Assembly: GCA_024614665.1 (NCBI GenBank)
Contig: GCA_024614665.1_4861.1
Direction: 5' to 3' (one strand)
Length of the DNA stretch: 64,000 nt
Source: a phage
Shown here: one piece after another, positions 1,743 through 43,188 of the stretch
Numbering within the stretch: the stretch's first letter is position 1
Layout of the letters: each line of letters starts with the position of its first letter
Notes under the pieces: model-generated
The model's input: the letters and a program-made list of their open reading frames with translations, nothing else
Told to the model about the DNA's origin: nothing
Database searches by the model: none
Position numbers and translations under genes: made by a program

Positions 1743-3257
1743 TTACACCTCTTCTTCTCGCAGTATGCGACGGTTTGCGTAATACGCACACCACAACCCA
1801 TGATACTCTTTACCGATATAGATTAAGAAGTAACGGATGTAGTATTTTTCAGGACGACACACCGCGATGTAATAACGGCCTTCCGGTTCTTTAATACGGT
1901 TGATTTCCGTACGCGATGGAATATCGATGCCGCGAGTCAAAATAACCGAGACAGGTCGTTTACCCATCGGAAAGTCAATCTTTAACGTTATTGACTTATC
2001 GACGCTACGGTAGTATTCCTTGACAGGTTTACCTTTGTCGTCGAATAGCAAGTCGGTAATGTCGTTTAAGACATAACCCTTTTCCTGATGCAGAACATCT
2101 CGCAACGTTGTAGCGAGTTCGTCACGAATATCCAGCGCACGGTACGACAATAAGGGCGGGCGAAGCATTCTGGAGATGGCCAGGTCTTCAAAGAACCAGA
2201 CATTGGAATCTTCTCCACTGAAATGCATCTTGTCTGCCGGTAATCCATCACCTGCCACATCAACGAACTTCTTACGTTTAACGAACTCATTGTTAACAAC
2301 ACCGATTGGATCATACTGCCGCATCTTCGGTGTATCTTTCCATGCCAGGGCGGCGTGGGTGTTTACAATCGTGTAGATGTTATCCCACGGTTGTTTAGTG
2401 AACATTACGGAAAAGTGTGCATCAGGAATCATTTTCCCAATAAACACCAAGTCGTCCTTGTTCTTTGCATGGTTACCACCAAACATGTAATAGAAAGTTT
2501 CATCTTTCACTTTTACAGTAGGATGGTCCTCGTTCACCAACGGATAGCAATATTTAACCGTACAAATCGGCGGATATGCCGCAAGGTTCATCCCAGCGGC
2601 GATGGGCTCGGGTTCCGCGGATGCAGGCAACTCATCTTTCGACCAGTACGGCTGATATGGAACGCCGTCGTTGGTCGCAGTGATAGCTGAACCTTTTCTA
2701 GCCAATTCGTCCGCCCGGTCGTTACCGTAGTGGCCGGAGTGTCCTTTGATTTTGATAACCTTAACACCCCGTCCTTCTTTTTTCATCTGCTGTTTGATTT
2801 CCCAGATACGAACAATAAGTTCTTTGTTCGCCAGCGGAGTACCGTCAGCACGAACCCAACCACGTTTATGCCAGCCGTCTATCCACTCGTTAAAAGTGTT
2901 TACAACGTAACTGGCATCCACGTAGATGATATAGTTCTTCGCGCGGAAGGGTGCGTTCTCAAACAACGTGATGAAGGCGATTAACTCGCCCACATCTGAG
3001 TAGAACTCTTTCGGAACGGGAATAACGGCGTCGACAAATTGAACGGTGTCCGGCAACTCCGGACACTTCACATCCTGCGGCACTTTTTTGTATCCAACAG
3101 TGGTAATCCGTTCTGAAACACCCGGATGGCTATAAGCCTGACTGTCTTCCAAATCTCCGTTGTTGAATAAATAACCATGAATACCAGCCCCCGAACCTTT
3201 CGGGGACTCAGTATGACTACCATCGGTATAAATAACCGCTACGTCGACGTCTTTCAT
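1743..3257 (-). CDS. RNase H (type 1) fold protein with about 300-aa C-terminal extension of unknown function
   Basis: N-terminal VIYTDGS, WIDGWHKRGW, IKGHSGHYGNDRADELARKG match RNase HI catalytic and substrate motifs; GAGGAG RBS; start overlaps stop of upstream gene (TAATG). Confidence 0.75.
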   Translation of the reverse strand: MKDVDVAVIYTDGSHTESPKGSGAGIHGYLFNNGDLEDSQAYSHPGVSERITTVGYKKVPQDVKCPELPDTVQFVDAVIPVPKEFYSDVGELIAFITLFENAPFRAKNYIIYVDASYVVNTFNEWIDGWHKRGWVRADGTPLANKELIVRIWEIKQQMKKEGRGVKVIKIKGHSGHYGNDRADELARKGSAITATNDGVPYQPYWSKDELPASAEPEPIAAGMNLAAYPPICTVKYCYPLVNEDHPTVKVKDETFYYMFGGNHAKNKDDLVFIGKMIPDAHFSVMFTKQPWDNIYTIVNTHAALAWKDTPKMRQYDPIGVVNNEFVKRKKFVDVAGDGLPADKMHFSGEDSNVWFFEDLAISRMLRPPLLSYRALDIRDELATTLRDVLHQEKGYVLNDITDLLFDDKGKPVKEYYRSVDKSITLKIDFPMGKRPVSVILTRGIDIPSRTEINRIKEPEGRYYIAVCRPEKYYIRYFLIYIGKEYHGLWCAYYANRRILREEEV

Positions 3258-3976
3258 TATTCTCCTCGCAACTGCGGTGGAATGTATTCACCTGTGCACA
3301 TTTCGCGGTGGGCTTCTAACATGCGCTCGAAGCCGTACGTACGCGCGACCAGGGCCAAATGATAGATGCGTGCCGTAGAATACGCTTCCTTCGCAGCATC
3401 AAAGCTAGCGTTATGCTCGTACGCTTCTTTGCCACGGGTCCAATGGTGCGCTTCTGCGTGCCAGTTAGGTTCCAGGCCAAACGCATATGCAATACGCTCT
3501 GCAGTCCGGTCAGAGTCCAATATAGAAAACTTGCGGTACTTGCCCGGCGGGATATCGCACTGCGCGAACGCGTTCATCAGAATTGGAGCATCGAAATCGG
3601 GACCGCGCATGGTGATAACCATTTTCACGTTGCCCAGATCATCCAACCATTTTTTGGCCGCCCACAGTGCTTCTGGCAGTGGCGTGGTCCCAGAAAACGC
3701 TTCAACACGTGCTTTCTCGCTCGGTGCGTATTCGGGGTCGCCTTTACCTTCCCAATAGCCGACCGTTTGTGGATCGATGTAGAAGATTTCTTTTGCTTTT
3801 GCATCGTTAGGGTCGATTTTGTGGTAACACGAACCGATCATTTTCATTGTCGGAACATCGAATGCCACGTTTGCCAACGTTAAGATGTAGGCATCTGGAC
3901 GTAAAGCCAGGGTCTCTAAGTCTGTACCAACAACCACGGTTGGTGTTAAAACAGGCAGAATTTTAGGATAGGTCAT
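3257..3976 (-). CDS. DEDDh-family 3'-5' exonuclease
   Basis: Exo I VVGTDLETL (DxE), Exo II GPDFDAPIL, Exo III HNASFDAAKEAY (H-x4-D); GGAGAG RBS. Confidence 0.65.
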   Translation of the reverse strand: MTYPKILPVLTPTVVVGTDLETLALRPDAYILTLANVAFDVPTMKMIGSCYHKIDPNDAKAKEIFYIDPQTVGYWEGKGDPEYAPSEKARVEAFSGTTPLPEALWAAKKWLDDLGNVKMVITMRGPDFDAPILMNAFAQCDIPPGKYRKFSILDSDRTAERIAYAFGLEPNWHAEAHHWTRGKEAYEHNASFDAAKEAYSTARIYHLALVARTYGFERMLEAHREMCTGEYIPPQLRGE

Positions 3977-11214: not shown

Positions 11215-11478
11215 TTAGGGTAAAGTTGCCTCCCAGTCGTAACGGTGAGGCTCAGGCAGCGTACCAAGCGCTGCTTTAATACACGTACTCAGCGGAGTAT
11301 CATCGAACGCAACACGCCCGATAGTACCCACGTTGATGTGTTTTGGATTTACGGGTAAGAACTCCTTCACCCGCTCGTACTCAGCCCAACAGATATCGGT
11401 GTTTAAAGCTGAAAACCCAGGACGGTGAAACATAAATAGCACTCCTCGCGTAAAAATACCCCACTCATAGTGAGGCAT
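11215..11478 (-). CDS. hypothetical protein (87 aa)
   Basis: ORF track; ATG start. Confidence 0.45.
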   Translation of the reverse strand: MPHYEWGIFTRGVLFMFHRPGFSALNTDICWAEYERVKEFLPVNPKHINVGTIGRVAFDDTPLSTCIKAALGTLPEPHRYDWEATLP

Positions 11479-11992: not shown

Positions 11993-12645
11993 GAGCTGAA
12001 TTCCTAAGTGAGCTTTCACCTGCAATGAAAGCGTGTGACGAAGAATTGCGTTTGTGTTTTCTTAAGTTTACCGGTAAAGCTTAGCGGTGTATACCGCCAC
12101 AGATGAAGACCAGTTCTCTATCGGAACTATGTCTTTAATCAGCAACGACGTTTTCAACGTCGTGATGCTGAGGTAACCTTCCGTCGCCACATTCGCTCAT
12201 GGCGCTTCTGATTACCACGCCAGTCTTCCCCGACTGTACGTGAAACTGCAAAATCATCCGGCCCGCAGACTTCCGCGATGTCTGCTAAAAGGTTCTTTGA
12301 AGACCCTATAGCCATCCCCACGCTAGAAAGAACGATACGCCGGGTTGGCTCGGCCGCCCCTAAACCCACGACCACGGGATCAGAGACTGTTTCACTGCTA
12401 CATGTTGTTTCTCCCACTTCGTAATTACCCTCCTGTTAAAACCAACCTTGCGTCAATGCAAGGATTGCGCCTAGGGCGTATGCGCCTGCTCCTAGTATCA
12501 GGCTACAGACGATACACCCAATCCATTTCACTAAAATAGCCACGTTACTACAAACGCTCCGATTGCGCAAACGATAAACGTGATACCAACATCTGTCCAG
12601 GTGGCACCGTCATACGCACCCGTTGCAATCATCGCCGCGTTGACA

Positions 12646-12849
12646 CTATTCACGACTGTCATAAGCCGGGTCCCTTAAACGTGGGGGCTTGCTCCACAGA
12701 TTACCGAAGTAAACCCCTTCTAAGAACACCAAAACAACTAATCCCCAAAAGGCAGGCGTGGCACGAGACAAGAAAATACCCAGCAGCACCGCAGTGTGCA
12801 TTACCACAACTGCCCAAAACTTTAAACGTCGCGGTTTACGTGTTGCCAT
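12646..12849 (-). CDS. small membrane protein
   Basis: MATRKPRRLKFWAVVVMHTAVLLGIFL...; part of a chain of overlapping small hydrophobic ORFs. Confidence 0.3.
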   Translation of the reverse strand: MATRKPRRLKFWAVVVMHTAVLLGIFLSRATPAFWGLVVLVFLEGVYFGNLWSKPPRLRDPAYDSRE

Positions 12850-12936
12850 GGAATGCCCATCCTTTCGTGCGGATAATCCAATCCCAGGCACCACGAATTA
12901 ACCACAGCGCAATACCGGTTAGTACAATACCTTCGA

Positions 12937-13128
12937 TCATGACCGTTCCCCTACATCTCGCCACTCACAACGTGTGTCGAACAGACGTTCTTTAAGAGCA
13001 GCAGCTAAATAAACAACCGCAGCGATAACCACTACGGTTGCACAAAAGGAGAGGTACAGTACCATCACAACAAACTGAAGGAACTGAAAACCCCACCAAG
13101 CCCATAAGCGCCAACCTTTATGATGCAT
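12937..13128 (-). CDS. small membrane protein (63 aa)
   Basis: ATG with GAAGGGG upstream; WRLWAWWGFQFLQFVVMVLYLSFCATVVVIAAVVYLAAAL; overlaps the end of the Rad50-like gene by 11 nt. Confidence 0.35.
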   Translation of the reverse strand: MHHKGWRLWAWWGFQFLQFVVMVLYLSFCATVVVIAAVVYLAAALKERLFDTRCEWRDVGERS

Positions 13129-15628
13129 ATTTGATTATTACCCCTTCGTTATAAACCGGTGGAAGCGTTACACCTTCTGGCTCGACGACACAGTAGGTGG
13201 CTTCGTTAAGTTTAGAATGAACTTCCGCTTCATGCGAAACGACCAGTAATTGAGAAAACTCTCCCGACAACGCCAACGATTTAATGAAGTTAACTAATCG
13301 GTTTTTGTGTTCTTCATCCATGCCTTCAGATGGTTCATCCAATAACAAAGGATAGTTTTGTAAACCAAGCGCTTTATACGCCGTTAAACGAAACATCATG
13401 TTAAAGATAATACGCTGTGCTTTTGAACCTTTCTTCACATCCGGTACCAGTTCTACATGGTCTTTTAATCGCACAGGGAACGTGTAGTCCAGATCCCCGT
13501 CGGTTAGATCGCACGGAATAACCTGCATCGGATATGCCCACACCATTTCGATATACCGATTCATTAAATCCATGATGCGGGTAATCGCAGCGTAGAAGTA
13601 ACGTCTCAGTAAACCTTTTTCAGGAGAAACCGCATTAATAATCAGTCTGGCATGGTGGTGTTCTTTGAGCAACTCAGCTTGCTCTTTTTCCAGTTCCGCT
13701 AAACGTGCAATAGCCCCTTCCATTTGACGAAACCGTTCACGAGCTGAAGTATACGCATCGAGCTTCGCTTCGCGGCGGTTTAACAACTCACGAACTACGA
13801 CGTTGTTAACGGAGATGTTCATTTCCGATACCAGATGTTCGTAGCCCTTTTGGAAACGTTCGATTGCTTCTTTGGTTTGTTGCAGTTGGGTGGTTTCGCG
13901 TTCCAGCTCATTGGCTTGTCTGCGGTATTCTATCAGTCGACGGTTAGCCCCGTCTAGTTGTGAACGGATATGTTCAATTTTCTGGCTCAGAGCACCATCA
14001 ACATTACCTACTGCGGCAACAGCCTCTTGCCATTCCCGTTCCGCTGTTGCAAGCTTCGCTGATTGACGCAGATACATCATGGCCGAATCTAACTCTTCGG
14101 TAAAGGCACGTGCAATGGCACCATATCGATCCCGCGCCGTGGTGAAGATATCCAGCTCCTGTAGTTTACGGAAAAACAAACCGACAACGGGATGATTGGA
14201 ATACGACATGACAATTTCGCGAATCGTACGTAGGCTACGGACGTCCTCTTCAATCTCTTTGCGGTCACGCAAAAGACTATCCATTTCGTCTTTCAGCTGT
14301 TTTTTCCAACCTTCATTATCGTTGATGGCCTTTTCAATTTCAGGTAACGACTTACGAATCCCAGGACGGAAACGGTGGTTACACTGTGGACAATCAACTT
14401 CTGCAGTTTCTAAGAAGTGTTGACGGTCGTGGTATAAACCGTGTAGCACATTCTCACAACGTTGCAACTTTTCAGATAGACCCGCAGAGGTTAAATCCAT
14501 ACCCTGTAAACGCTTCTCTAACGCTCCTAGGCGCTCTGTTGTCTTTAACTGGTCCAGATGCATGGACAACGGTAAATTCCAGTTACAGGCGTCGTTTAAC
14601 GCGTTCTGAATGCTATCCACGTCGATGCGGGTACCTTCAAACAGAGCCGGGAACATCCAGTTCTGTTGGAACGTTGCCAGTTCCTGTTTTAAGCTGTCGA
14701 TTGTTTGTTTTAGACCGGTATGGTTACGCATCAGATACGCTTGACGCGACTCCTCATCCAGTAGCTGTGACAACTCTTTATTGTACATGTTGCATTCAGT
14801 TTCAGCGGAGGCAGCTTGCTCACGCCAGGCAACCACACGACTTTGAAACTCGTTAATCAGTTCGTCAGAAGGCAGAACGCCATAACGTTCCATAATGAGT
14901 TTTACAGCCGGTTGCAACGAAGCAATGCGTTTCCGGATACTGTCAACCGAAACAGCGTTATCTAAACCGGGCCTTGCTTCAATTGTGCGGTTTAATTCTT
15001 GAAGCTCAGCATCGAGTTCTTTCAAACGAACTTCTAAACGTGCACGATCTTCTTCATCGTCAACGACGCGCATTTTTGCTTCGCCGATTTTTCGTCCGGT
15101 GTGTTCGATGGCCCCGCTTAAACTGGAAGCGAGTTTACGCAAACGTCGATAGCAGCCAACAACGTACGTCAGATCAGATTCTGACATTAACGTAAACCAT
15201 TTACGACGAACTTCGGTAGTGGCGTCAGTTAATAAGGTCTCACCATTAATTAACTCTTTGATTTCTTTGGTGATTCCGGTTAATTGCTCCACCATGGAGT
15301 TGTAAACTTTGGCGTTTACCGAGTCCACAATGGGGACGCCTTTGGTGATATTGAAAATACTACAAGACAAAGAAGACCCACGTCGCAGGACTTCAAACTT
15401 AAGACGGTCGTCCCCGACTAACGCGTAGTTAGTGTAAGAACCACCTTCACGGAATTCAGATTTTGCTGGAGCTAAGGGGAGAAAAACAGATAGGAGGCTT
15501 GTTTTACCGCAACCATTCCCACCAAGGATAATGGTAACGGTTGATTTAAGGGTGAAATCAAACGTTTCGATTTCATGTAACCCCATGCCGGTAAATCCTT
15601 TCAAAATGATACGTTCGACCTTGAGCAT
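13118..15628 (-). CDS. Rad50/SbcC-like ATPase with zinc hook
   Basis: Walker A GGNGCGKTS at N-terminus; long coiled-coil middle with CPQC hook; C-terminal LLLDEPSEGMD (Walker B/D-loop) and VVSHE (H-loop); GAAGG RBS. Confidence 0.8.
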   Translation of the reverse strand: MLKVERIILKGFTGMGLHEIETFDFTLKSTVTIILGGNGCGKTSLLSVFLPLAPAKSEFREGGSYTNYALVGDDRLKFEVLRRGSSLSCSIFNITKGVPIVDSVNAKVYNSMVEQLTGITKEIKELINGETLLTDATTEVRRKWFTLMSESDLTYVVGCYRRLRKLASSLSGAIEHTGRKIGEAKMRVVDDEEDRARLEVRLKELDAELQELNRTIEARPGLDNAVSVDSIRKRIASLQPAVKLIMERYGVLPSDELINEFQSRVVAWREQAASAETECNMYNKELSQLLDEESRQAYLMRNHTGLKQTIDSLKQELATFQQNWMFPALFEGTRIDVDSIQNALNDACNWNLPLSMHLDQLKTTERLGALEKRLQGMDLTSAGLSEKLQRCENVLHGLYHDRQHFLETAEVDCPQCNHRFRPGIRKSLPEIEKAINDNEGWKKQLKDEMDSLLRDRKEIEEDVRSLRTIREIVMSYSNHPVVGLFFRKLQELDIFTTARDRYGAIARAFTEELDSAMMYLRQSAKLATAEREWQEAVAAVGNVDGALSQKIEHIRSQLDGANRRLIEYRRQANELERETTQLQQTKEAIERFQKGYEHLVSEMNISVNNVVVRELLNRREAKLDAYTSARERFRQMEGAIARLAELEKEQAELLKEHHHARLIINAVSPEKGLLRRYFYAAITRIMDLMNRYIEMVWAYPMQVIPCDLTDGDLDYTFPVRLKDHVELVPDVKKGSKAQRIIFNMMFRLTAYKALGLQNYPLLLDEPSEGMDEEHKNRLVNFIKSLALSGEFSQLLVVSHEAEVHSKLNEATYCVVEPEGVTLPPVYNEGVIIKYAS

Positions 15629-15679: not shown

Positions 15680-15713
15680 GTAAAAAAGAAGAAATGGAAC
15701 CCCGAAGGGTTCC
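15680..15713 (-). terminator. intrinsic terminator
   Basis: hairpin GGAACCC-CGAA-GGGTTCC with T-run on the minus strand after 15725..16351. Confidence 0.6.
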
Positions 15714-15724
15714 AGAGAGGAGAG

Positions 15725-16351
15725 TTATTGCGGAATAAACTTACGGTGTCCGAGTGATTCCCAAAAACTATCGGTGCGCTCTTTGGTTAATTCATACCAC
15801 GCACGCCCGGCATCAGAATCGACAACCTTTAACGTTTCAGTAAGCAGGAATTTGAACAGTTCAGCGCTACGACCGGGTGCTACACCGTCGAGATATATCG
15901 GAATTAAATAACCGGTTTTGATTTCTTCGTACGGTTGCGATTGGTGCTGACCAACAACCCAGGCGTCAGCCGCGCTACCGACCAAAGTGGTGTTTACAGT
16001 TAACTCATCAGAAATCCAGTTAACGGTATCAGCCATTATTGAATCGCCATTGACGTAGAAGAAAACTAAACGTTTAGGTTGCTCCACCGAACCGGCCAAA
16101 TCTAATGCAGTAGTTCCGGTGAAGATCGTATTATTGGGATTACGTTCTGCAATAGGTAGAGCAAACCACGCTTCGAGCTGTTCCCAGCTACGCGGCAGTG
16201 CTTCTTTAAACCACTTCACCAATCGCGGGTATTCCAGAAACCCTTCTACCTCTTCTTCCATCAGATTGATACGCAGTTTGGTATCCTGACGATTCGCTTT
16301 CTGACATGTCACCATGTCATCGATGAAACGAATCAGGGTAATTTCGTTCAT
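15725..16351 (-). CDS. hypothetical protein (208 aa)
   Basis: ORF track; followed by hairpin terminator. Confidence 0.6.
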   Translation of the reverse strand: MNEITLIRFIDDMVTCQKANRQDTKLRINLMEEEVEGFLEYPRLVKWFKEALPRSWEQLEAWFALPIAERNPNNTIFTGTTALDLAGSVEQPKRLVFFYVNGDSIMADTVNWISDELTVNTTLVGSAADAWVVGQHQSQPYEEIKTGYLIPIYLDGVAPGRSAELFKFLLTETLKVVDSDAGRAWYELTKERTDSFWESLGHRKFIPQ

Positions 16352-16365
16352 GTTTAATCCTTCTT

Positions 16366-16397
16366 CAACAAAAAAAGAAGGTAGCCCGTAGGCTACC
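16366..16397 (-). terminator. intrinsic terminator
   Basis: hairpin GGTAGCC-CGTA-GGCTACC with T-run on the minus strand after 16406..16906. Confidence 0.6.
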
Positions 16398-16405
16398 TCT
16401 CGTAT

Positions 16406-16906
16406 TTACAGCCCCATATGCATAAGGGAAATGATAGGGACTTTTCGGCCACGTATCATTGCATACGGTTCGTACATTTGTGCGTTAGTTTCGAATAACT
16501 CACAGGCCGGAATACGATCGCCGGTAGAGAGTTGTAAGACTTCGATTTGGTCGCCCCAGAAGTTATTCACTAATACGTGGTCGACAGTGTTGTCTTCACG
16601 ACCTTCAGGGGTTTTGCAATAAGTGGCGGCATCGTACCAACCTTTGCGGTATACTTCATAACCCGCGTGAAGCATCCGGTAGTACGGACGCAGTTGTGGG
16701 GCATTCAACGCAGCATCTAGCCACTCGCTGTGAATGCTGTTAATCAACACGGTCGCTTCTTCTGGCCACTCGCTGCGGTTTAGGGTTAACTCGCCTAACA
16801 GCTTTAACTTCCAGCCAGTGGAAAGAATAGCGCGGGTACGTTCTGGATTGACGTTCATCTGAGTAAAGAAAGTAGAACGAGTATCGTCAAGAATGTTCAT
16901 GTTCAT
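16406..16906 (-). CDS. hypothetical protein (about 166 aa)
   Basis: ORF track 16406..16972; start moved to ATG (MNMNIL...) with AAGGA RBS because upstream codons lie inside a terminator hairpin. Confidence 0.5.
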   Translation of the reverse strand: MNMNILDDTRSTFFTQMNVNPERTRAILSTGWKLKLLGELTLNRSEWPEEATVLINSIHSEWLDAALNAPQLRPYYRMLHAGYEVYRKGWYDAATYCKTPEGREDNTVDHVLVNNFWGDQIEVLQLSTGDRIPACELFETNAQMYEPYAMIRGRKVPIISLMHMGL

Positions 16907-16924
16907 TTGCTTAGTCCTTACGAG

Positions 16925-16977
16925 TAATAGTCGATTAAAAAGGACCCTGCGGCTATGTGTTGGGGATATCACCGCAG
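16925..16977 (-). terminator. intrinsic terminator
   Basis: stem CCCTGCGG / CCGCAGGG with long loop, then T-run on the minus strand, after 17036..17419. Confidence 0.45.
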
Positions 16978-20617: not shown

Positions 20618-21199
20618 TTACGCAACGTAAACCGCGCGATGGTTGCGGAAGCCGTGTTCTTCGGTAAGGTAGCGGGCGTAGGTGTGTTCAATAGACGGAG
20701 TATAACAAAGCAGATGCAGTTCCTGCCCTTCAGCTAGGCCAGGCAACATCACACTCAACCAGTCCATTCCACCGTTCTGTTGAAGCATGTCTTGAGTTAG
20801 CGTTAGCGGTTGAACAATATGTTCCGGACTGCTATCGTCTTCACTTTTTGTAAAACGAAGAATTCCCGGACGAGAACCCTCCACCAGTACCGTGCGCGGT
20901 AAGTCAAACGCGACCACTTTCGCTTTCTGTTCGTAGGACGACTTATAACGACGTAGTAGTCCAATATCGGTATCCAGTACGGTAGCCATCACGTTATACA
21001 ACATCACAAGACGGCCGTCGTTGTCGTTAGTGACATGTTTTACGAACACCAACATCGGAATACCTTCGCGTTGGAATACCACGAAGTCTGCTTCTTTGTA
21101 TTTCTCGCAACCTTCTACTACCTGTGGGGCTTTCACGCGATAGCGGCGGGTCAGTTCTTCGTAGTTCATTTCATGTTGTTCAATAATTGGTTGTGGCAT
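20618..21199 (-). CDS. hypothetical protein (193 aa)
   Basis: ORF track. Confidence 0.6.
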   Translation of the reverse strand: MPQPIIEQHEMNYEELTRRYRVKAPQVVEGCEKYKEADFVVFQREGIPMLVFVKHVTNDNDGRLVMLYNVMATVLDTDIGLLRRYKSSYEQKAKVVAFDLPRTVLVEGSRPGILRFTKSEDDSSPEHIVQPLTLTQDMLQQNGGMDWLSVMLPGLAEGQELHLLCYTPSIEHTYARYLTEEHGFRNHRAVYVA

Positions 21200-21218
21200 G
21201 GTTATATACTCTTTACGG

Positions 21219-21250
21219 TTAAAAAATAAGAAGGGGGTACAAGACCCCCG
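21219..21250 (-). terminator. intrinsic terminator
   Basis: hairpin GGGGGT-ACAAG-ACCCCC with T-run on the minus strand after 21260..22498. Confidence 0.5.
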
Positions 21251-21259
21251 ATGACGAGA

Positions 21260-22498
21260 TTACAGTAAACGCAAATCTGCGACAAACAACAGTTGACGGC
21301 CGTACTTAGTCACTTCTTTCCAGCCATTGTTAACACCCCATTTGATGATAGCGTCGTAATGCCACTGTTTCAGTTCGCTGGTACCCCACGCATCCCGTAC
21401 CGCCTTCGCCGACATCAAATAAGCAGGTTCGGCAACGGAGCGCATTTCAGAATCTGGCAGGCGAGAAACAACGGAACTGTTCACGCGCCGCAGCGTTCCT
21501 GACACTTGTATCCAGAACGCAGGCGATATTGTATTTGTCGGTCGACAGTCAAATACCCACGCCGTGTCATTTTCACTGGCCGGGGTCTTGCGTTTATAGA
21601 TGCTTAACAGTATTTCTGACTGGATAACTTCGCGGAAAACAGCAAGAAGAGCGACGACTTTCTCATTAACCACCTCACCCTTTTCGACCTTATAGTAATC
21701 TTTAAGGTTTCCTGGCTCTGTTATCGGCATTACTGACCAAACATCGGCGTCTAACATCTCACCGAAATAATGGTTAGCGTTTTCATCAGATGTCCAGAAC
21801 ATCGTATTACCGTCATTGGCAGTGGTGACTAGATCACGCAGTGCTTCCTTGGTGTCTTCGTCAATTTCCACAGGTTTGGCTGCTTCACGCGGTGCGTTTT
21901 TCGTGTAGAATCTGCGCTTGCTTACCGCTCTATTCCATACGGTAGTAATTTGGTACGCAGTGAATTCGGGGAACTGCTGCACCAACACTTCCGCATCAAC
22001 ATCGAGTCGCTCTGAATTAAAGTTTTGTAATTTCTCATTAAACCCTGTATTCAGCTCTCCGCCAGTCCACCAGTTGCTGTCGCTTAGTGCAGGCATGTCA
22101 GGTGTTAACTCGAACACCGGTTTACCGGTCAGCAGAGTAAGAATGTAGTGCACCCACATTGTGTTACCCTCAGCAATGGCGCGTCCGATGTTTTGATTAC
22201 CCGATAGGTAAGTTACTCGCGAATCCCCTTCGAACGTCATGGTTAACTCAACCCACGGCGCTAAGTCGGAGACGTGGTGGCCTAAACGGCACTTTACTTC
22301 CCCTTTGTCAAGCAGACGCTTTTCAACAACGGTTGAGAGCTTTTGTGGCAGGCACGCACAATCCTGCCACGTTACGTCGCTGTAAGCCATACTCCGAATA
22401 TTGAACTGCATTCCCAACAGTACAATTGAGTTAGTAATTACTGCATTAAAGAATGCTTCTTTCGGTGTCTGGTAAACTAATTCGTATTCGTTATACAT
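21260..22498 (-). CDS. hypothetical protein (412 aa)
   Basis: ORF track; followed by hairpin terminator at 21219-21250. Confidence 0.65.
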   Translation of the reverse strand: MYNEYELVYQTPKEAFFNAVITNSIVLLGMQFNIRSMAYSDVTWQDCACLPQKLSTVVEKRLLDKGEVKCRLGHHVSDLAPWVELTMTFEGDSRVTYLSGNQNIGRAIAEGNTMWVHYILTLLTGKPVFELTPDMPALSDSNWWTGGELNTGFNEKLQNFNSERLDVDAEVLVQQFPEFTAYQITTVWNRAVSKRRFYTKNAPREAAKPVEIDEDTKEALRDLVTTANDGNTMFWTSDENANHYFGEMLDADVWSVMPITEPGNLKDYYKVEKGEVVNEKVVALLAVFREVIQSEILLSIYKRKTPASENDTAWVFDCRPTNTISPAFWIQVSGTLRRVNSSVVSRLPDSEMRSVAEPAYLMSAKAVRDAWGTSELKQWHYDAIIKWGVNNGWKEVTKYGRQLLFVADLRLL

Positions 22499-25857: not shown

Positions 25858-28800
25858 ATGGCTGTCGTCCCTGACCCGCACTATCAAGAACCGGGGAATA
25901 TGCAGACCGGTGAAGCGGTAACGCCGATCGGTACTAAGTACCGGATGCTGTTCCCCGCACACGCCCCCTTTTATACCACATCCCTGGTGGTCAAGAGTGG
26001 CGGCAAGAAATTAACATTAGGTGATGATTACGTCATCACCCATGCGTACGTTACGGGCATGGCCCGCACTGGTCATGTTTGTCACGGCGGCGTGTGGATT
26101 ACCAACCCGAAATATCAGAGTGGCTTTACACTCGATTACCATGCAATTGGTATCGGTGAAGCCACTGCAGAAATGATCGCCGCAGAACGAGAAGCGAATA
26201 AAGATCGCTATCCTGTAGACTGCCAATGGGATAACGTCATTGGGGATTTATATTTCCCACCGGTCGATATTAAGTTCGACTGGGAAAACTGGCGTGGTGA
26301 ATCCGAACTGATGGAAGCGATTGCCGAGATCGGACAGAAGATCGCGACATTACCACCGATACCCGATCCGATGGCAAATAACACCGCAAAATACGTTGAT
26401 AACGATTTAGTTGAACCGAACTTTACGTACGATAACGCCGGTGGCTTCGTTACTAATACGAACAAAGCTGACCAGTATAGCACCTTAGGGTCAAGGACGT
26501 ATTCTCTTGGTGACTATAAGTTCCAGGCAACGTATACATTACCAAGTTACTACTCGACAACCACTACGCCGTACTGGTGGTTCACGCTAATCGGGTACTG
26601 GGGATCGCCTTTCCGCAAGGCAACGCTTGAACTTGTTAACGGTAACACTTTCCGCTTCCTAATTACCTACGACTCGTTTGACAAAAAAGAAACGTTCGTC
26701 TGGGCAACTTTGCCGGTTGGGATTGATTTCTTCAAGAAGCCTTTTACAGTTACCATTGACCGTAAACGTGCGGCCCGCACCATCGAATTGACTATTACGC
26801 AGGATTCGAAGGTCGTTTTACACTCGCTGATGGATATGAATAATCCACCGGCAGAGTTTGCGACCAGGTTTACACAACTGGGTATTGCGTCGACGCTGGA
26901 TCGCAATACGGACTTCCGTTTCCGTCACATCAGCAGCATCGGCGATAAAGTGTCTTTTAGGGCTCTTCCAGGCGCAGTCATTGAGGCCCCTGATGGCTCA
27001 GATGTACTATCGATACTCAAAAAGTATCACGCATTAGTTGACCAACTGTACCGAGGCGCGCCAGCGCACGCGCACGTGCCGCGCAAGGATAACCCACATC
27101 GCGATTCGTGGGGTGCAATCCGTGCTTTGGAAAATAACGGTATTGCTTCGGACGCGACACTGGTATACGGAAAAACGCAACCGCAGCTGACAGATTACGT
27201 TAACAATCTGTTGCCGAAACTGTCAACGCTGGCGAATAAGCTTTTGCGTTTACCGGCGGCTGCACAGTCTATCAGCGGCACGTTCGGCATGAAGCCTGGC
27301 CTGACTTCGATAACGTCAGCAGTGGGTACCGATGAGTCTGAAGGCGTGGGTGCGCAATTCACGGTTGACCCGAGGGTTATCCGTTTTATTGGACGCGATT
27401 CGCAAACCGTTAACGCCGGGAACAACCCGATCACATGGCAAGGCGGTGCTAACCAACTCATCCTTTATCCGGATTCCCGTGGATTGGAGTTCAACGGTAA
27501 GAAACTGTTGGACCCTACTACGGTCGGGCCGTATTTGCCGGGTAACGAGTCAGGTGGCGATGGACTGTTTTACGGAACTTCCACAGCTACTGTAACCATT
27601 AACGGTAACGGTATTCAGTCTGTTCCGTTTATTTGTACCTTTGTTCCACCGGAGTCCGATGACCTTGGCCTGATGGCTGTCCGTTTGTTGGCTACTGAAT
27701 TCGGCGATCGTGAGGACTTGGCCGCAACGCCGGCACTCATCAAGAAATTGGATCAGCAGTTTACGGGCAAGTTGGTTGCCGTTAAATCGTACATCAACGA
27801 CATGCCACTGACGAGTTCTATTTACATCGATAAAACTAACTTTGGCTTATCGAACGTACAGAACGTCCCAGATGTACAATTGCCGATTTCCCCGCTCCAA
27901 CAAGCTGAGCTGGACAAGTATGCAGTCGTCGGTCACAAACACACTTCTGCTGCGTTCGGGATTAAGCGTGCAACAACGACGGAGTTCGGTTTAGTACAGT
28001 TCGGCACCGCGGTTGACGATGCCACGCTGGCATTAGACGGCGGTGTGGTCATCCGACAGGCGGACGCCATCACAGAGATAGAGAAGGTTGCGAAGACGGT
28101 CGACTCTGGTGCTGCAATCGACATTATTCGTTACGGTTTACCCGGCACAGATATCATTGAAAACGGCATCACTTACACCGACTGGATGGTTACTATTAAA
28201 GCGAACGATTATTTCGTTGGTCGCGAGTACAAAGTACCTCTTTCCACATTTAACTTGGCGGAGCTATTCCCAGCAACGCACGAGGATGCTGAGTTTGGCG
28301 TGTATGTTGACGTGGCAGGCAACGATGCTAAGTATATTATCTACGAAAATCCAAATACGGCAGAAACTGAGACGATGACCAAAATAGGTTCCATCATCAC
28401 CAGTGAAACCGGTGTGGTGTTTGTAGAAATCCGCAACGTGACGCGTTTAGGTGAGTTCCGTGAATTAGGCGAGCATATCGAGGATGATAACGCCCATATT
28501 CGTCGGGGTATGACGCAAGCTGAATTCGGATTTACTTACGGTACGGGCGGGCCTGTGTGGTCCACGGGTGCACCGGGTACAAAACGTATAGATGCTGATT
28601 GGCGTTACGCGCAGGCTAACAGCTATACGCCTATGTTGGAAGCGGACTACGATCCGGCTGCTGACAAATGGACGTTTAAAACAACCAGTTTATCTGTAGC
28701 CGATTATCGTTTTGTCCACAACACATTCCCGATGTTCCAGAATAACGGCATTACCGCGACGTGGACACCTTTAACCGCAACAGCGGACAGTGTGCTAGAA

Positions 28801-32500: not shown

Positions 32501-33717
32501 CCAGAGTTCTGCAGTGGAGTAATTCCAAGACCAGTTTAAACTGTGGCTTTATTGCTGCGCCGTACGATAAACCAACCGGAAGAATTGCCAGCACACAATC
32601 CAGCGTTACTAATACGCTGGTTGATGCTCCTCGTGTAATCAAGAGCGTGGAAGTTCAGTCGCCTGACTGTTTAGACTATCTCCCGGTTTCAATCGCTAGC
32701 GAGTTCGCAGCCATTGGTTCACGCTGGCTTATTCGTTATCGCTATATTGTTGATACGCAGATACTGCGAATATCGACGATTAGTAAGATAGGTGGCCAGG
32801 CTTCGGCAACTGTTCGTGAGATAGAATACGACATTCCGTTTGACGCGATTGATTATTTTAAAGGTGGCGCTTTATCGATTAGTGTTACTGGCATCGAAAC
32901 TGGTGAAGGCGTCACAATCAACCACGGTTTGATGGACCCCTCCACAACAGAAGTAGATTTAAATCGTTTCCATTATCTACGCTCATTATTTGAGTCGTAT
33001 ATTGAGCGTTCTCCAGACACCCAGTCTTCTGGGCATGAGGAGATGTCGATATCAACCGTCACGTTCGCGAACTTTGGAGATAACGTCGATAACCCGGTTA
33101 CGGAATACATCACGTTGTCTGCTGCAGGCGAGGGTTATCCGGAACTTGCACCGAATGGTAAACTCCCTGCACCGTTTTACAAAGGACTGCAGAAACGTGG
33201 TGCTCCGCTACTTGAGTCGGCTCCTACAGACTATACGTCTAACGGTGGTGAATGGAAGTACGGCTTTATGCGGGCTTATCGCCCAACTCAAAATGAGCGT
33301 TTTGTGTCGGTAAATGGGACAATGCTCTCTAACTACCCTGGATACATCATCGTGGGTAGTGAGAAAATTCCGGGTAATGTTATACCTTTCAGTGCATCGA
33401 CAACAGCTGTTCAGATATCTGGGACTCTTGCCCGCACGAAACCGATGCAGCCAATTCACATCGTGTTCGTGCCTCCGGAAGGTTCTGTGCCGCCACTGCA
33501 AGCGAAGTTCACTATTAATGGTGTGGGCAGTAGTGGTAATCCGTTGTTCGTGATTACTGAAACGACACCGGTGGAACTTCGCACAGGTGGCGAGACGGTC
33601 CTCATTGAGAAGCGTAATCCATTCCACATCCCCACCAGGACATGGGATTGGATTTTACAAACGTTGGATACTGAACGTAGAAACGAAGGCAACAACTCGG
33701 GTGAGTGGGCCTCTTAG
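29575..33717 (+). CDS. tail fibre-like protein (1380 aa)
   Basis: AAGGAG RBS; ATTSEPGVVTLTDKPSDV and GIARYSTNLNSL fibre-type motifs; Gly-rich GAGGGTGGGT linker. Confidence 0.75.
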   Translation: MKTYPYDPRGVNPECHFIEERIIDSDNPNDRVVMLDHRPFFEGLVVTLAGSSIPLTRGTDYELEYALTPLDDSVTTPVFCGVHLINPKLRGAVVFEGQMLGGTFYSGLIEMLDELIKALNNPTAADWLLLGNRPSLYPATPAAVAWSDMLNKKYVASAVHDVELDAGAANEQIREKLTELKDTVLALGTEIATFNYPGHIASTNPHGTTAAQAGAHPVNLKTPDTFLAYGKTLRQLTSEVRALGLQQSDIDKYISKWVSKESKGVFNATISGTRALFRSPAGESEIVFSAEAFTLKSNGSVVLACGYADTTGTVRFMEWKAGINTLRIESTGSALGMDKLTLNGTTLLTTTALMGYQQDPGAGGGTGGGTVDPDDNKLYISGVNGITFTGKGSKADPVAGKVTAKPATTSEPGVVTLTDKPSDVVKGQAATPASLLPYEGDLSSYVRKTTLLNNQPMDTGSRTLTKKDLGLDLADNTADVDKPLSDSLAEAVTGLSDKGHHHNFADLQIPTASQTVPGIARYSTNLNSLSDNRGVTPNVLNDLSKRLDVVAAALANAKEDTVTDFAAVRGKTWTVGSSRTTLAVTDLNYFYLLNGARKEGTVSGSIDLQTTPMFQWFSPDNRMERTWQNAVINTGAGIDFSGFEVAVPETDYGAQIGLTTTGMGDLSVVNLLAKTWVRCDSGKLRIWVRGGGAVSVYLDGEIIAAGITEAGYLEATVKEGWKQHCLAFRAECNDSAKAAAIRFTIYDGDFAVGASDKNTKVARLQEFVKTPNGLRHYLYVNMITDALYSRAEPIVDTDGINLERGYIGYIDVPETGLVAGTTYEFETTFDFGMASELKRHFETRLAHGVSNTDWSLTDNPKMLPLNKVDPLPKQWLYAYPTNPSVSGDNLVRLDRGLFDYKFVSATSLTILLAAVVSTENASPYCWFTPSNPKENGMATFEGSVVIDTDYPEVPKTSDVEVSLNFMAPSADGKGKTRVLQWSNSKTSLNCGFIAAPYDKPTGRIASTQSSVTNTLVDAPRVIKSVEVQSPDCLDYLPVSIASEFAAIGSRWLIRYRYIVDTQILRISTISKIGGQASATVREIEYDIPFDAIDYFKGGALSISVTGIETGEGVTINHGLMDPSTTEVDLNRFHYLRSLFESYIERSPDTQSSGHEEMSISTVTFANFGDNVDNPVTEYITLSAAGEGYPELAPNGKLPAPFYKGLQKRGAPLLESAPTDYTSNGGEWKYGFMRAYRPTQNERFVSVNGTMLSNYPGYIIVGSEKIPGNVIPFSASTTAVQISGTLARTKPMQPIHIVFVPPEGSVPPLQAKFTINGVGSSGNPLFVITETTPVELRTGGETVLIEKRNPFHIPTRTWDWILQTLDTERRNEGNNSGEWAS

Positions 33718-33728
33718 GACGGACTGCC

Positions 33729-33795
33729 TACGGGCGGGTAGTCCGTAGGTAAACCGCCCTTCCGTTATTGGGAGGGCGGTCTCCGTTTTATTACA
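33729..33795 (+). terminator. tandem hairpins / intrinsic terminator after tail fibre gene 2
   Basis: CCTACGG-N9-CCGTAGG then ACCGCCCTTCC-N7-GGAGGGCGGT followed by CTCCGTTTTATT. Confidence 0.55.
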
Positions 33796-33812
33796 GATTA
33801 GGAGTGTTTGCA

Positions 33813-36800
33813 ATGCCGAGAGAAGATGCGGCGCAGTTTAACGGTACGCTCAGTACCGCTACTTACCCGAACCGTTATTCGGCGGTCATTCCCGTCGAAG
33901 CACCGTTCTATCGCATCGGGTTAACGTTAACCGTTACCGATAAAACAACCGGAACCAAACGCAAGTTAATAGAAGGTCTTGATTATTTCTTAGGACATTA
34001 CTTCCAGGAATTAGCCGAGGCTGAGAACGATGCAATATACGGCAGCATAATGCTGCTGAACGCCACAGAGGTAGAATACGAGTTGTTGTCGGTTGGTCGA
34101 CAGTATCGCATCCCTGCTTCTGAAATCGGCAAGTATCTGGTTAAGACAGATATGAAAGACCCGCGTAACTGCGATTGGTCTGAGCTGATGAAATATCCGC
34201 CGATTATCTCGCCAATCGACCCGCCAAAAGACCTCGAAGAAGCGATTCTTCGCGATGAAATCGTAAAGGCGTTGGAAGATATCCGTCTGGGTATTTTAGA
34301 GCGCGCCCACGAGCTGGATGAGGCTTTTGCCGAAGTTACCGATTTGATTTATCAGAACGGTAAGCAGGTGTTTGAAGATGAGATGTATCAGCACCACCTG
34401 GTTAAAAACGCACACGGTTACACCTGCGGTGATATTGGCGCTCTCCCGGTACTCGGCAAAGCCGTAGATGCGACTAAGGCATTCGGACGTACCCTGGCAG
34501 AGCTAGTGACGTTAATGTCTACCAGCGGCATCCAACAGAAACACGTTGACATGCTTCTGGATAATACCCTGGGTGATTTACTGGGCCGTATGCGTGTTCT
34601 GAATAACGACGCGATTACGTTCCAAACAACGTCTGGTCACGTTATCAGCATGAAGGGTGAGAAGTTCATCATCACCTCGACAAAACCGCTGGTATTAAAA
34701 GCTGACCAGGATAACAACGAACCGGGTATCGCTACGGAGTTCAGTGCTGGTCTGAACACGCTTTGGGTTCACTCGGGTAAAGCAGGTGACAAGTGGGGCG
34801 ATTATGATGCGGGTGTGCTTGCACCTGTGTATAATAGCGTGTATCTCGTTACACCGGATATGGTTAAGATGTACTTGACCTCGGTGAAGATACTTCCAGC
34901 AAACGCCTACTTCAAGTCCAGCGACACGTTGAAGATTTATGGCTCTGGTAAAGAAACAAACAAAGTTTACATGAATGCGGAGCTGCCTGCAGCAACCACA
35001 ACTGTGCAGGGTTTGTTTGCGATTACTAACCTTTCGGCGTCCGCTGCATCGTCCACAGCGATTTCCCAAAAAGCTGTTACTGACTTGAAGAACAAACTCG
35101 ACGGATATGTGGACGACACGTATACGGTCAACGGCAAAGGGTTTGTGTTAGACGAAAACGGTCAAATGCATTTAACCTTAACCGCGTCGGATTTCGGTAT
35201 TGAGAAGATGAACAATACCGGGCCGCTGGAGAAACCGGTTACTAATGCGTTGCGCACCGTGCTATCAGGCAAGGCACTCTCAACACACACCCACACCATT
35301 GCTGATCTCGATGACGTGCCGTACGCATCCACATCTGTTACAGGTTTGGCTAAACTGTGGGATGCTATTGACACCACAACAGATAAGATGGTTACTGCCC
35401 GCCAGGGTTTCTTGCTCGAACAGAAGATCGGTACACTGAACGACAAGATTGCTACGTTGTTGCCAGCATGGACCGTTGGCGGATCGTCGTACGGTAACAA
35501 TAACTTCTTGCCTATACCTGTCCAGGGGAACTACGAAGGGTACACCAAAAACCAAACTTGGCAAAAAGGACTGGCGCGTTACGAGGCTGGTAAGGTTTAC
35601 TCGTTGCGTAATGGTTCCAACGGTAACGCCCCTGCTGACTGGGCTATCTATTACGCCTATGCTGATGTGTCGCCAAGCAATACGCTGGAAAATATGCAGC
35701 AGACGTCCGTACGTTATCACCCCGCTGGAATGTCGGCGTATCCTGGGGTGAATCTGGTTGCTATTCTGATTACCGGTACAGATGCAATGATCTGCTTAGG
35801 CAGTGACGGTGCGTATTACCTGGTCATCTTTGACGGCACCATTGACCATGCAAAACATCATCGTGTTGTTAAAGTTTACTTGGGCGATTACCGAAATGGT
35901 AACGCGGCCGGTGTGATTACAACCGCACCATGGGTTGCCGATCCATCAACAAACGATTTGATCGTTTGCAACGATCGGGTTTATCTGCTCCGTACTGTGC
36001 TTACCTCCGGTGACTATTTCGTGAGTATGCGTAGCATCGCACTCGACGAACTTAATCTGGGTGGTAGCAACACGTTTGTGGCGGATGTGTTAACGGGTGG
36101 GATGTTAACGTCGGGAGATAATATCTACTTGCGTCAGGGTCAGAAACGTTCTGATACAGATGTGTTGGTAGCGCCAGTAACACAAATCTACGCAGACGCA
36201 TCGGCGAAGTGGAATAGTGCGCGAAATTTCGTCCATGGTCCGGAATGTAATCACGCGATTGCTGTGGATGGGCTGAACTTTCGTGTTGGTTTAACGCCAA
36301 CAGTCTGGTTTGCTTCTACTACAGGGCAAACTATTAACTTTAAACAATGGGTGTCAAGCTTTGTTGTTGATTGCAGTTCAATGACGGTAACGCTGGAAGG
36401 GGCTGATCGATTCCCTATTGTGGCTGATCTTACCGCGGTTCGTTATAACGGTGGTGCTGAGATTGGGATTCCGAGCTGGAAGTGGGGCGAAGGTCAAGCT
36501 AATAACCGAACCTTTGCAACATCGCAAGACAAGTATATTGTTTCGCAAGGACTTTCAGGCGATCGCGACCTAATGCCTTATGTCAGGATTACAACGTTAG
36601 ATGACGGTGTGAGTTGGTACGAGTACCTGTCGTGCGACTACAACTTCACTGCCAGAAGTTTTAGTGCGGTAATGTTAAACCAAGGACGTGGTTCTATCTA
36701 CGAGCTGGGTATGGCGTATCCGCTGACTCTGGGAGCGAATTCCAGACTTATCTGGTTGTCACAACCGCGTACCCGTTTGGCAATTGAAGTTGAGTTTGAT

Positions 36801-41363: not shown

Positions 41364-42251
41364 ATGAAAAACGATTTGCATCTTGCGTATAAAACCACAT
41401 TCAACCACCCGCTGCATCTATCTTCCCCAGATTCGGTGCGTGCACACCTCGCTGACAAAGTCAGACTGATTGCACAGATTCCTGGTGAGTGGCCAAAGGT
41501 TCGTGGTCGCTTCTTGACCGACAAGAAGAACTACACCGTAGAAAATACGTTTAAGATCCGTGATATGGTTGCAGAGGCCATCGTTATCTTTAACGGCGAT
41601 GGTAACTCTCGCGGCGTGTTGGTTGACGGTAAGTATTTCTTCAGTGAAGGGATTCTGAACAACAGTGTCGATTTAGAACTGATGTTTACACCGTTTGACG
41701 AACTCGAAGCAAAACCGATGGCGCGCCGTTGGTGGAGTCCGGACTATCTGGGCTCGTTCCCTTACTACTTTGTACTGGTACCTGCCGATACGGAAACGTA
41801 TTTCGACACCGAACCGTACATCGATATCGAGGGATATAAAGAACTCGGCATCACCCGTTTAGCGGACATGATGGCGTATAGCTATAAGTTCGTGTGGGAT
41901 AAAAAGCGTTCTGTCTGGTATGCGCTGACTGACGATTTTGAAATCACCAAACGTATTCGTAAGCCGTGGATGCAACACCTGGTTCAAACCCGATATGGGG
42001 ATTACCCGGCGACAGAAGCGGATTTGAGTAAGCTGGTAAGCTTCCTCTTAACGAAGGTGGATTTAACGAAAGAAGAAGCAGAAGCTGTTTCTGAGATTCG
42101 TAGTCGTTCGGTTACGTTGGCCGATTTGAAACGCTTGAACGAAAGACATGCCGACCTGAACAAAATTTTAGCTGCCTATCACGACCCGATGTTACTGGTG
42201 CCTGGCGCTAATGTAGACGAAGATCCTTTATTCGCCATTGATTATATTTAA
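41364..42251 (+). CDS. hypothetical protein (295 aa) within the radical-SAM cluster
   Basis: ORF track; co-directional, tightly packed between precursors and radical-SAM genes. Confidence 0.6.
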   Translation: MKNDLHLAYKTTFNHPLHLSSPDSVRAHLADKVRLIAQIPGEWPKVRGRFLTDKKNYTVENTFKIRDMVAEAIVIFNGDGNSRGVLVDGKYFFSEGILNNSVDLELMFTPFDELEAKPMARRWWSPDYLGSFPYYFVLVPADTETYFDTEPYIDIEGYKELGITRLADMMAYSYKFVWDKKRSVWYALTDDFEITKRIRKPWMQHLVQTRYGDYPATEADLSKLVSFLLTKVDLTKEEAEAVSEIRSRSVTLADLKRLNERHADLNKILAAYHDPMLLVPGANVDEDPLFAIDYI

Positions 42252-42273
42252 AAATATACTGGAGCAACCTGCA

Positions 42274-43188
42274 ATGACAGATCAAGTAGAATCCAGGATC
42301 TCGTCTGAACTGTACGACAAACCGTCAATTCTGTCGGTTGTCGCAACTTCTAAGTGTAACTTAGACTGTAGCTTCTGTGGAGGGGCTTATTACATGGATA
42401 GAGAAGATACTTCTCGTGAGTTTCAACGTGAAGAGATTCTCTCGATTTTAGAGAAGAATCCGGATATCGGTGAAATTCATTGGACGGGCGGTGAGCCGCT
42501 GTTAGCGCAGCGCAAGATTGAAGACTTCGTGAACGAGTTGAAGGAGTCTCATCCGAACCTCCGTCATCACATGTACACCAACGGTTTAAAGATGCGTAAA
42601 TCACATCTGCCGTTGCTGAAACAGTTCGACCTTATCTTTGTGTCCATTGACGGCTACAAGAAGTCGGAACGTCCGTTTATGAACTTTGTAAACGGTGGTA
42701 ATCACGAAGCGCTGGAAGTGCTGTACGAGCTGGACAACTATTACACCTGGGGTGTGATGACGCGTGACCAGTTAGGTGATAAACGCTGGTACGAAGATTT
42801 CATCGAGCTGCACCGAGCAATCTATCATTACCGTCCAGGTGGTATGTCGTTGCTGTTTGATGCGATGATGCCGAAACCGTTATCGCCAGACCACGTCATG
42901 AACTTCATGTACGGGTATTGGAAAATACTCGACAATATCGAACGCCTTAACATGCAGAACGATTCTGAGTGTGGGCTTGCGATCAGTAAAATGTTCGATA
43001 CTGAGTGCAACACGTGCAGTGAAGTGCTGTGGCTTAACGCCGACGGTACGCAGGAGCAAATTCAGAACGCCCCAGAGATATTGGAAGTCGGCTGTAATCG
43101 CCTGGCGCGTTCTATCGGCGTTGATGCGTATAACTACATCAACCGTGTAATTTCTGCTAAGCGTAAACGGGCGGCGAACAATGAGTAA
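42274..43188 (+). CDS. radical SAM enzyme (about 304 aa)
   Basis: CNLDCSFC (CxxxCxxC) near N-terminus; GGEPLL; C-terminal Cys cluster (ECGLA...ECNTCSE...GCN); ATG with CTGGAG RBS (ORF track starts 42238). Confidence 0.75.
   Translation: MTDQVESRISSELYDKPSILSVVATSKCNLDCSFCGGAYYMDREDTSREFQREEILSILEKNPDIGEIHWTGGEPLLAQRKIEDFVNELKESHPNLRHHMYTNGLKMRKSHLPLLKQFDLIFVSIDGYKKSERPFMNFVNGGNHEALEVLYELDNYYTWGVMTRDQLGDKRWYEDFIELHRAIYHYRPGGMSLLFDAMMPKPLSPDHVMNFMYGYWKILDNIERLNMQNDSECGLAISKMFDTECNTCSEVLWLNADGTQEQIQNAPEILEVGCNRLARSIGVDAYNYINRVISAKRKRAANNE

Follow-up and report, generated by a model that had tools for sequence, protein, structure and literature searches.

Where is the nuclease partner of a phage Rad50/SbcC-like ATPase whose gene has no Mre11/SbcD gene beside it, or is such a protein a different SMC-like ATPase altogether? 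The question is raised by a gene in a 64-kb stretch of phage DNA (64,000 nucleotides, hereafter the window), which belongs to an SPN3US-like Salmonella jumbo phage. The window is a 96–98% nucleotide variant of SPN3US, SaP7, and SEGD1, with SaP7 as the best match, and it is colinear with SPLA5c from ~194.6 kb to ~130.4 kb when reverse-complemented. A megablast search with the ATPase gene returned 36 phage records (32 Salmonella, 2 Escherichia, 1 Enterobacteria, and 1 Proteus), of which 34 were 95–99% identical. These relatives, such as the Salmonella phages SaP7, SEGD1, SPN3US, and JN03 and the SPFM and SPLA series, represent the genus Seoulvirus of 240-kb phiKZ-like jumbo phages.

The ATPase gene and its family

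The first-pass annotation described an 836-aa ORF carrying Walker A, CPQC, Walker B, and H-loop motifs, and all of these were confirmed when the motifs were checked at the nucleotide level. The degenerate ABC signature listed below was missing from that description. The features of the gene are as follows.

13118..15628, (-) strand: SbcC/Rad50-like ATPase gene, 836 aa, ATG start (ORF, phrog_77, and family profile); ortholog of SPN3US gp186 and phiKZ orf165
15500..15523, (-) strand: Walker A / P-loop GGNGCGKT, aa 36-43 (checked at the nucleotide level)
14381..14392, (-) strand: CPQC, putative zinc hook at the coiled-coil tip, aa 413-416 of 836 (checked at the nucleotide level)
13415..13429, (-) strand: degenerate ABC signature GSKAQ, aa 734-738 (aligned to SGGE of P. 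furiosus Rad50, 3qku)
13316..13351, (-) strand: Walker B and D-loop PLLLDEPSEGMD, aa 760-771 (checked at the nucleotide level)
13232..13234, (-) strand: H-loop histidine H799 (checked at the nucleotide level)

The bipartite ABC head is thus complete, with Walker A at the N-terminus and the signature, Walker B, D-loop, and H-loop at the C-terminus. The window protein shares 99.8% amino acid identity with SPN3US gp186, which is annotated as 'putative SMC domain-containing protein', and aligns over its full length with phiKZ165 (orf165) at 21.5% identity; it is the same protein as these two from the Chimalliviridae jumbo phages, with no substantive difference. We aligned nine orthologs (phiKZ165, PA1C, Goslar, RisingSun, Aphrodite1, CR5, RSL2, JM-2012, and the window protein), the other members being merely 19–43% identical to the window protein. 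Despite this diversity, the motif residues were invariant in 9/9 sequences, namely N38, G39, G41, and K42 of Walker A, C413, P414, and C416 of the hook (a C-P-x-C pattern), S735 of the signature (family pattern (G/C)Sxx(Q/E/M)), P760, D764, and E765 of Walker B, D771 of the D-loop, and H799.

The CPQC motif lies close to the midpoint of the protein (residue 418), as the hook does in Rad50. The two head halves are separated by ~600 residues with a propensity for helix, which gave matches to coiled-coil proteins and to the cores of Rad50/LmuB profiles; a split of the gp186 ABC domains by >600 residues was also described by Thomas et al. (2016; J Virol 90:10284, PMC5105663). A Pfam search gave no hinge-domain match of the kind expected for an SMC-type globular hinge, and the midpoint is instead a short non-helical break with CPQC. 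A single-sequence AlphaFold2 model of the 836 aa (pLDDT 47.7, pTM 0.27) was too poor to support a fold; in this low-confidence model, strands occupy residues 1-97, helices fill residues 101-697 except for an interruption at 409-415, and the C-terminus is alpha/beta, an order like that of Rad50 but one that carries no weight here.

Among family models, phrog_77 ('SbcC-like subunit of palindrome specific endonuclease') of PHROGs matched the full length of the protein with an E-value of 4.4e-96. Pfam SMC_N stayed below threshold (29.5 bits against a gathering threshold of 40), as did all the NCBIfam matches, which ranged from 1e-11 to 1e-15 for the Rad50 models and from 1e-11 to 1e-19 for Rad50 and ASRP together; the cut-offs of the curated full-length Rad50 models were far from reached (e.g., 55.8 bits against 1087). 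When the single sequence was compared with the PDB, P. furiosus Rad50 was matched weakly, over both head halves. With a profile built from the nine orthologs, the top 15 PDB matches were all Rad50 (E-values 1e-14 to 1e-5), while PtuA, retron ATPases, and SMC appeared in the same search at 2e-5 or weaker. Archaeal Rad50 proteins (P. furiosus and M. jannaschii) were the solved structures that best matched the two head halves of gp186; the head motifs alone align with them, and the identity is low. Because the nine-ortholog profile ranks Rad50 structures in all of the top 15 places, we class the window protein, from its sequence, as a Rad50/SbcC-type ATPase and set aside the other SMC-like families. 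The suggestion in the first-pass annotation that it might be a different SMC-like ATPase is accordingly disfavored by both kinds of profile, and the comparison led to no unrelated ATPase family.

Searches of defense-system models by PADLOC raise a further reading, in which the protein is an LmuB-like Lamassu ATPase, or another defense or counter-defense ABC ATPase of the PtuA, AriA, or DndD type, carried by the phage. The LmuB model PDLC03859 was matched with an E-value of 2.7e-20 and the JetC, DndD, PtuA, and AriA models more weakly, and LmuB has head motifs and coiled-coil content in common with the window protein. These matches, however, reflect the head motifs and coiled coil common to the Rad50/SMC superfamily, and the score for the phage SbcC family is far stronger (phrog_77, ~4e-96). 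Moreover, the Lamassu partners LmuA and LmuC are absent beside the gene, and no effector of their type adjoins it; its neighbors are ORFs of unknown function and transmembrane mini-ORFs without effector-like domains. Unlike accessory defense cargo, it is a conserved and essential core gene across phiKZ-like phages that co-occurs with an SbcD-like nuclease gene. A defense-type ATPase is, in our judgment, exceedingly improbable.

The probable nuclease partner and the spacing of the two genes

The genes around the ATPase gene were as the first-pass annotation had it, with small membrane-protein ORFs downstream and unknowns upstream; hydropathy predicts transmembrane segments in the former, and the latter have no Pfam family.

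12937..13128, (-) strand: 63-aa ORF with a predicted transmembrane segment (SPN3US gp187; hydropathy), whose ATG overlaps the SbcC stop by 11 nt
12646-12894, coding strand of SbcC: small ORF with a predicted transmembrane segment, downstream of SbcC
12531-12662, coding strand of SbcC: small ORF with a predicted transmembrane segment, downstream of SbcC
12436-12570, coding strand of SbcC: small ORF with a predicted transmembrane segment, downstream of SbcC
15725-16351: upstream ORF without a Pfam family
16406-16972: upstream ORF without a Pfam family
15695..15714, (-) strand: terminator-like hairpin between the upstream gene and the SbcC-like gene, with an 8 bp stem, a TTCG loop, and a T-run (consensus scan only)

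The hairpin at 15695..15714 suggests that the SbcC-like gene may start a new transcription unit.

No Mre11/SbcD gene adjoins the ATPase gene, as had been noted, and the absence extends to the whole window. A six-frame tblastn search of the 64 kb with the SbcD-like protein of the phage itself found no Mre11/SbcD-like coding potential (best E-value 0.77), and no ORF in the window carries the multi-motif phosphoesterase pattern. An isolated GNHE is present in the ORF at 42217-43185, from which the remaining phosphoesterase motifs are absent. Two kinds of substitute were considered and rejected. The gp206-like ORF at 3257-3976 ('endodeoxyribonuclease/exonuclease') is a DEDDh/Rv2179c-like 3'-5' exonuclease (Pfam E-value 8.6e-9, phrog_255) and not Mre11, and the upstream ORFs at 15725-16351 and 16406-16972, taken as possible cryptic nucleases, had no Pfam matches and hit PHROGs of unknown function alone.

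Outside the region corresponding to the window, a divergent SbcD/Mre11-like gene is found in 36/36 close relatives. In SPLA5c, it is located at 33135-34283, encodes 382 aa, and is annotated as SbcD-like; its SPN3US counterpart, gp27 at 21020-22168, was entered in GenBank originally as 'putative nuclease SbcCD D subunit'. The protein matched phrog_100 ('SbcD-like') with an E-value of 8.5e-64, and a family profile matched T. maritima Mre11/SbcD (2q8u, 3qg5_C) with an E-value of 5e-8 over ~280 residues. We looked in gp27 for the five motifs of calcineurin-like phosphoesterases (I DxH, II GDxxD, III GNHD/E, IV H, and V GHxH) and found all of them, motif III in a divergent form. In an alignment of seven family members, motifs I (DxH), II (GD), IV (HG), and V (GHxH) are conserved, and motif III reads GTxSHD throughout the family, with Ser aligned to the canonical metal-ligand Asn of GNHD. 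Because of this replacement, the nuclease activity could differ. The Pfam Metallophos model is below threshold in the family (15 bits against 21.5) and was seen in five of the seven members.

A megablast search with the SbcD-like gene likewise returned 36 records, divided among organisms just as for the SbcC-like gene, SaP7 included. The window phage would accordingly be expected, from its 36 close relatives, to encode the same partner. Beyond the genus, tblastn found the SbcC-like and SbcD-like proteins in 298 and 290 phiKZ-like phage records, respectively, with near-identical counts for the two proteins by genus: Pseudomonas 81/81, Erwinia 62/62, Serratia 21/21, Aeromonas 19/19, Klebsiella 16/16, Ralstonia 13/13, and Vibrio 22/23. 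In two records, Proteus phage 7 and MET_P1_082_240, the SbcC gene is labeled 'nuclease SbcCD subunit D'; this is a mislabel, and the true SbcD-like gene of these phages is located elsewhere.

The two genes are nevertheless far apart. In 19/19 genomes for which both positions were listed, they are separated by 38–122 kb on the circular map, so that none of the 19 (0/19) has them adjacent, and in six SPN3US-type genomes the distance is ~93 kb. The split is ancestral and general in phiKZ-like phages. The first-pass annotation expected a Rad50-like gene of a phage to be accompanied, as a rule, by the gene of the nuclease subunit. This holds for T4 and E. coli but not for phiKZ-like phages, where the two are regularly split. 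The proposal in that annotation that the partner may lie elsewhere was borne out by an SbcD/Mre11-family gene ~93 kb away in every close relative (36/36).

This spacing could be read in another way, as the mark of a stand-alone SMC-like ATPase that works without an SbcD-like nuclease, for example in organizing or condensing DNA in the phage nucleus or in packaging, with the distant SbcD-like gene being functionally unrelated. Besides the fact that the genes are never adjacent (38–122 kb apart in 19 genomes), a coiled-coil region exceeding T4 gp46's by ~300 residues and the weak matches to SMC and ASRP models would fit such a protein. On the other hand, it has a CPxC hook in place of an SMC hinge, the profile search favors Rad50 over SMC by ~9 orders of magnitude, and the gene co-occurs strictly with the SbcD-like gene in ~290 genomes. 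Scattering of linked genes is, furthermore, general in these genomes, the RNAP subunits being split likewise (PMC5105663). We find a stand-alone ATPase very unlikely, and consider it highly probable that the product of the gene is the ATPase subunit (SbcC/Rad50) in a phage SbcCD/Mre11-Rad50-type nuclease, with the SbcD subunit (gp27) encoded ~93 kb away, outside the window.

Comparison with known systems and possible mechanism

E. coli SbcCD and T4 gp46/gp47 share with the phiKZ-like proteins the bipartite ABC head, what is probably a long coiled coil, the central CxxC hook, and a partner of the calcineurin-like phosphoesterase family. They differ in gene order, since the genes of E. coli and T4 share an operon whereas those of phiKZ-like phages are 38–122 kb apart, and in two motifs, as gp186 has the degenerate signature GSKAQ rather than LSGGQ/E and the nuclease has GTxSHD rather than GNHD/E as motif III. 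Similarity between T4 gp46 and gp186 is undetectable by BLASTP, the proteins are 63.6 and 95.7 kDa, respectively, and the coiled-coil region of gp186 is ~300 residues longer (PMC5105663).

Genetic data on these proteins come from the literature. Thomas et al. (2016) assigned gp186 and gp27 of SPN3US as the SbcC and SbcD subunits, remarked on the "drastic" separation of their genes, and found a gp186 amber mutant to be lethal, showing that gp186 is essential, as is T4 gene 46 (PMC5105663). In phiKZ, orf165 tolerated no transposon insertions (PMC12676376), and antisense (ASO) knock-down of phiKZ165 gave a mild phenotype only (PMC12571901). The main text of the core-genome paper of Prichard et al. 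(2023) does not mention gp165/SbcC.

By analogy with Rad50/SbcC, the N- and C-terminal ABC half-domains of two gp186 protomers would join into ATP-binding heads, from which the long antiparallel coiled coils would extend, their tips joined by the CPxC hooks, which would hold a zinc ion between them. The SbcD-like phosphoesterase (gp27) would be seated on these heads as a dimer, and ATP binding and hydrolysis by gp186 would gate the access of the nuclease to DNA ends and hairpins. Such a complex is likely to process DNA ends in recombination-dependent replication and in repair of the 240-kb phage genome. The phage also has genes for a UvsX-like recombinase and a RuvC-like resolvase, with which gp186 and gp27 may work together; in Goslar, the SbcC gene is two genes away from that of the resolvase. 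In this scheme, the assembly of gp186 and gp27 into a complex, the binding of zinc, the activity as a nuclease, and the role in the phage are all projected from the known systems.

A variant of this explanation places the SbcCD complex at a membrane. Thomas et al. (2016) drew attention to the 63-aa transmembrane gp187, which they saw as a possible membrane anchor and a possible counterpart of T4 gp47.1, a protein proposed to serve as such an anchor (PMC5105663), and the start of gp187 overlaps the SbcC stop by 11 nt, as translational coupling to the ATPase gene would have it; four consecutive small transmembrane ORFs, spanning 12436-13128, follow the gene. Against such tethering, CR5 alone among eight other genomes examined has a transmembrane ORF after SbcC, which makes this no feature of the family as a whole, and according to general statements in reviews a proteinaceous nucleus houses the DNA metabolism of these phages. 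A gp187-type ORF is not conserved downstream of SbcC in phiKZ, PA1C, Goslar, Aphrodite1, or JM-2012, and in RisingSun this position is taken by a signal-peptide-like transglycosylase. We regard a complex tethered through gp187 as very unlikely.

More broadly, the SbcC-like ATPase of nucleus-forming jumbo phages could have acquired a function that goes further than the SbcD-like nuclease or does not involve it, either as an SMC-like organizer of the replicating genome or within a complex tethered by a lineage-specific transmembrane mini-protein. Altered mechanics would in that case lie behind the long arms, the degenerate signature, and the Ser in place of Asn at the nuclease site. None of our findings calls for such a function, and we hold it to be very improbable.

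With the ATPase as the SbcC/Rad50 subunit of a phage SbcCD-type nuclease, the arrangement of an essential SbcC gene and a distant SbcD gene is one already published (Thomas et al., 2016; PMC5105663), real but ordinary for this phage group, and its significance beyond correct annotation is slight. It does bear on how partial genomes of these phages are read. An "orphan" Rad50-like gene in a partial phiKZ-like window is no evidence for a missing or novel partner, because linked genes are scattered in these genomes and the SbcD gene is reliably tens of kilobases away.

Transcriptional context of the SbcC-like gene

Two strong terminator-like hairpins, each followed by a T-run, lie upstream of the SbcC-like gene.

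15695-15714 (-), terminator-like hairpin and T-run after one of the two upstream genes
16378-16399 (-), terminator-like hairpin and T-run after the other of the two genes

Because both upstream genes are followed by such a hairpin, the sequence suggests that the SbcC-like gene is transcribed separately from them, in one unit with the transmembrane mini-ORFs. These four mini-ORFs (63, 82, 43, and 44 aa; window 12436-13128, -) stand in a row directly 3' of the SbcC-like gene, each with a predicted transmembrane segment. There is an 11-nt overlap between the ATG of the first and the end of SbcC at its stop codon, suggesting that the SbcC-like gene and the 63-aa mini-ORF are translationally coupled. 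A transmembrane ORF at the same place after SbcC recurs only in CR5 and is absent in the more distant phiKZ-like phages.

In phiKZ (gp164), RisingSun, and Aphrodite1, the divergent neighbor of SbcC carries the annotation baseplate (assembly) protein. That of PA1C is a hypothetical protein whose record notes its similarity to phiKZ gp164, and the same position in RSL2 holds an unannotated hypothetical protein. The SPN3US lineage does not share this gene order and has two unknown ORFs upstream of SbcC instead.

Relatives, database records, and an exonuclease/RNase H gene pair

The alignment of the window to SPN3US and SPLA5c is interrupted at about 11216-11255, 26323-27044, and 52836-54329 by indels or replaced segments; judged from the alignment, these breaks are small variable regions in genomes that are otherwise 96-98% identical. 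Eleven records of the SPFM series (LR5359xx) align only as fragments, at about 19 pieces per kb. Indel-rich assemblies are the probable cause, and the fragmentation lowers the number of protein-level matches counted. In two GenBank records (MT679221.1 and OQ383623.1), the SbcC gene is mislabeled "nuclease SbcCD subunit D."

Two further genes of the window abut, with base 3257 common to stop and start.

3257-3976 (-), DEDDh (Rv2179c-like) 3'-5' exonuclease gene
1743-3257 (-), gene for an RNase H domain protein of 504 aa

In phiKZ, orf155 encodes an RNase HI domain protein whose knock-down phenotype is among the strongest (PMC12571901).

The SbcD-like nuclease

Within the window, a 323-aa ORF (42217-43185, +) contains a single GNHE tetrapeptide; the other phosphoesterase motifs are absent from this ORF, and the tetrapeptide is probably there by chance. 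The SbcD-like gene lies outside the window, at the SPN3US locus L020.

L020 3001-4149, SbcD-like gene, SPN3US gp27
L020 4146-4982, L015 2344-3114, and L018 2311-3111, conserved-block gene loci

Whereas motif III of Mre11/SbcD (GNHD/E) carries a metal-ligand Asn, the phiKZ-like SbcD-like nuclease has Ser there, in a GTxSHD motif that is invariant in the family alignment A2. This substitution may be the reason why Pfam Metallophos misses the phiKZ-like nuclease. The block around the gene is conserved, with phiKZ gp064-065-066 corresponding to SPN3US gp26-27-28. The downstream member, SPN3US gp28 (phrog_3229), is a conserved unknown overlapping the SbcD stop by 4 nt; gp28 may act as an accessory factor of the SbcD-like nuclease.
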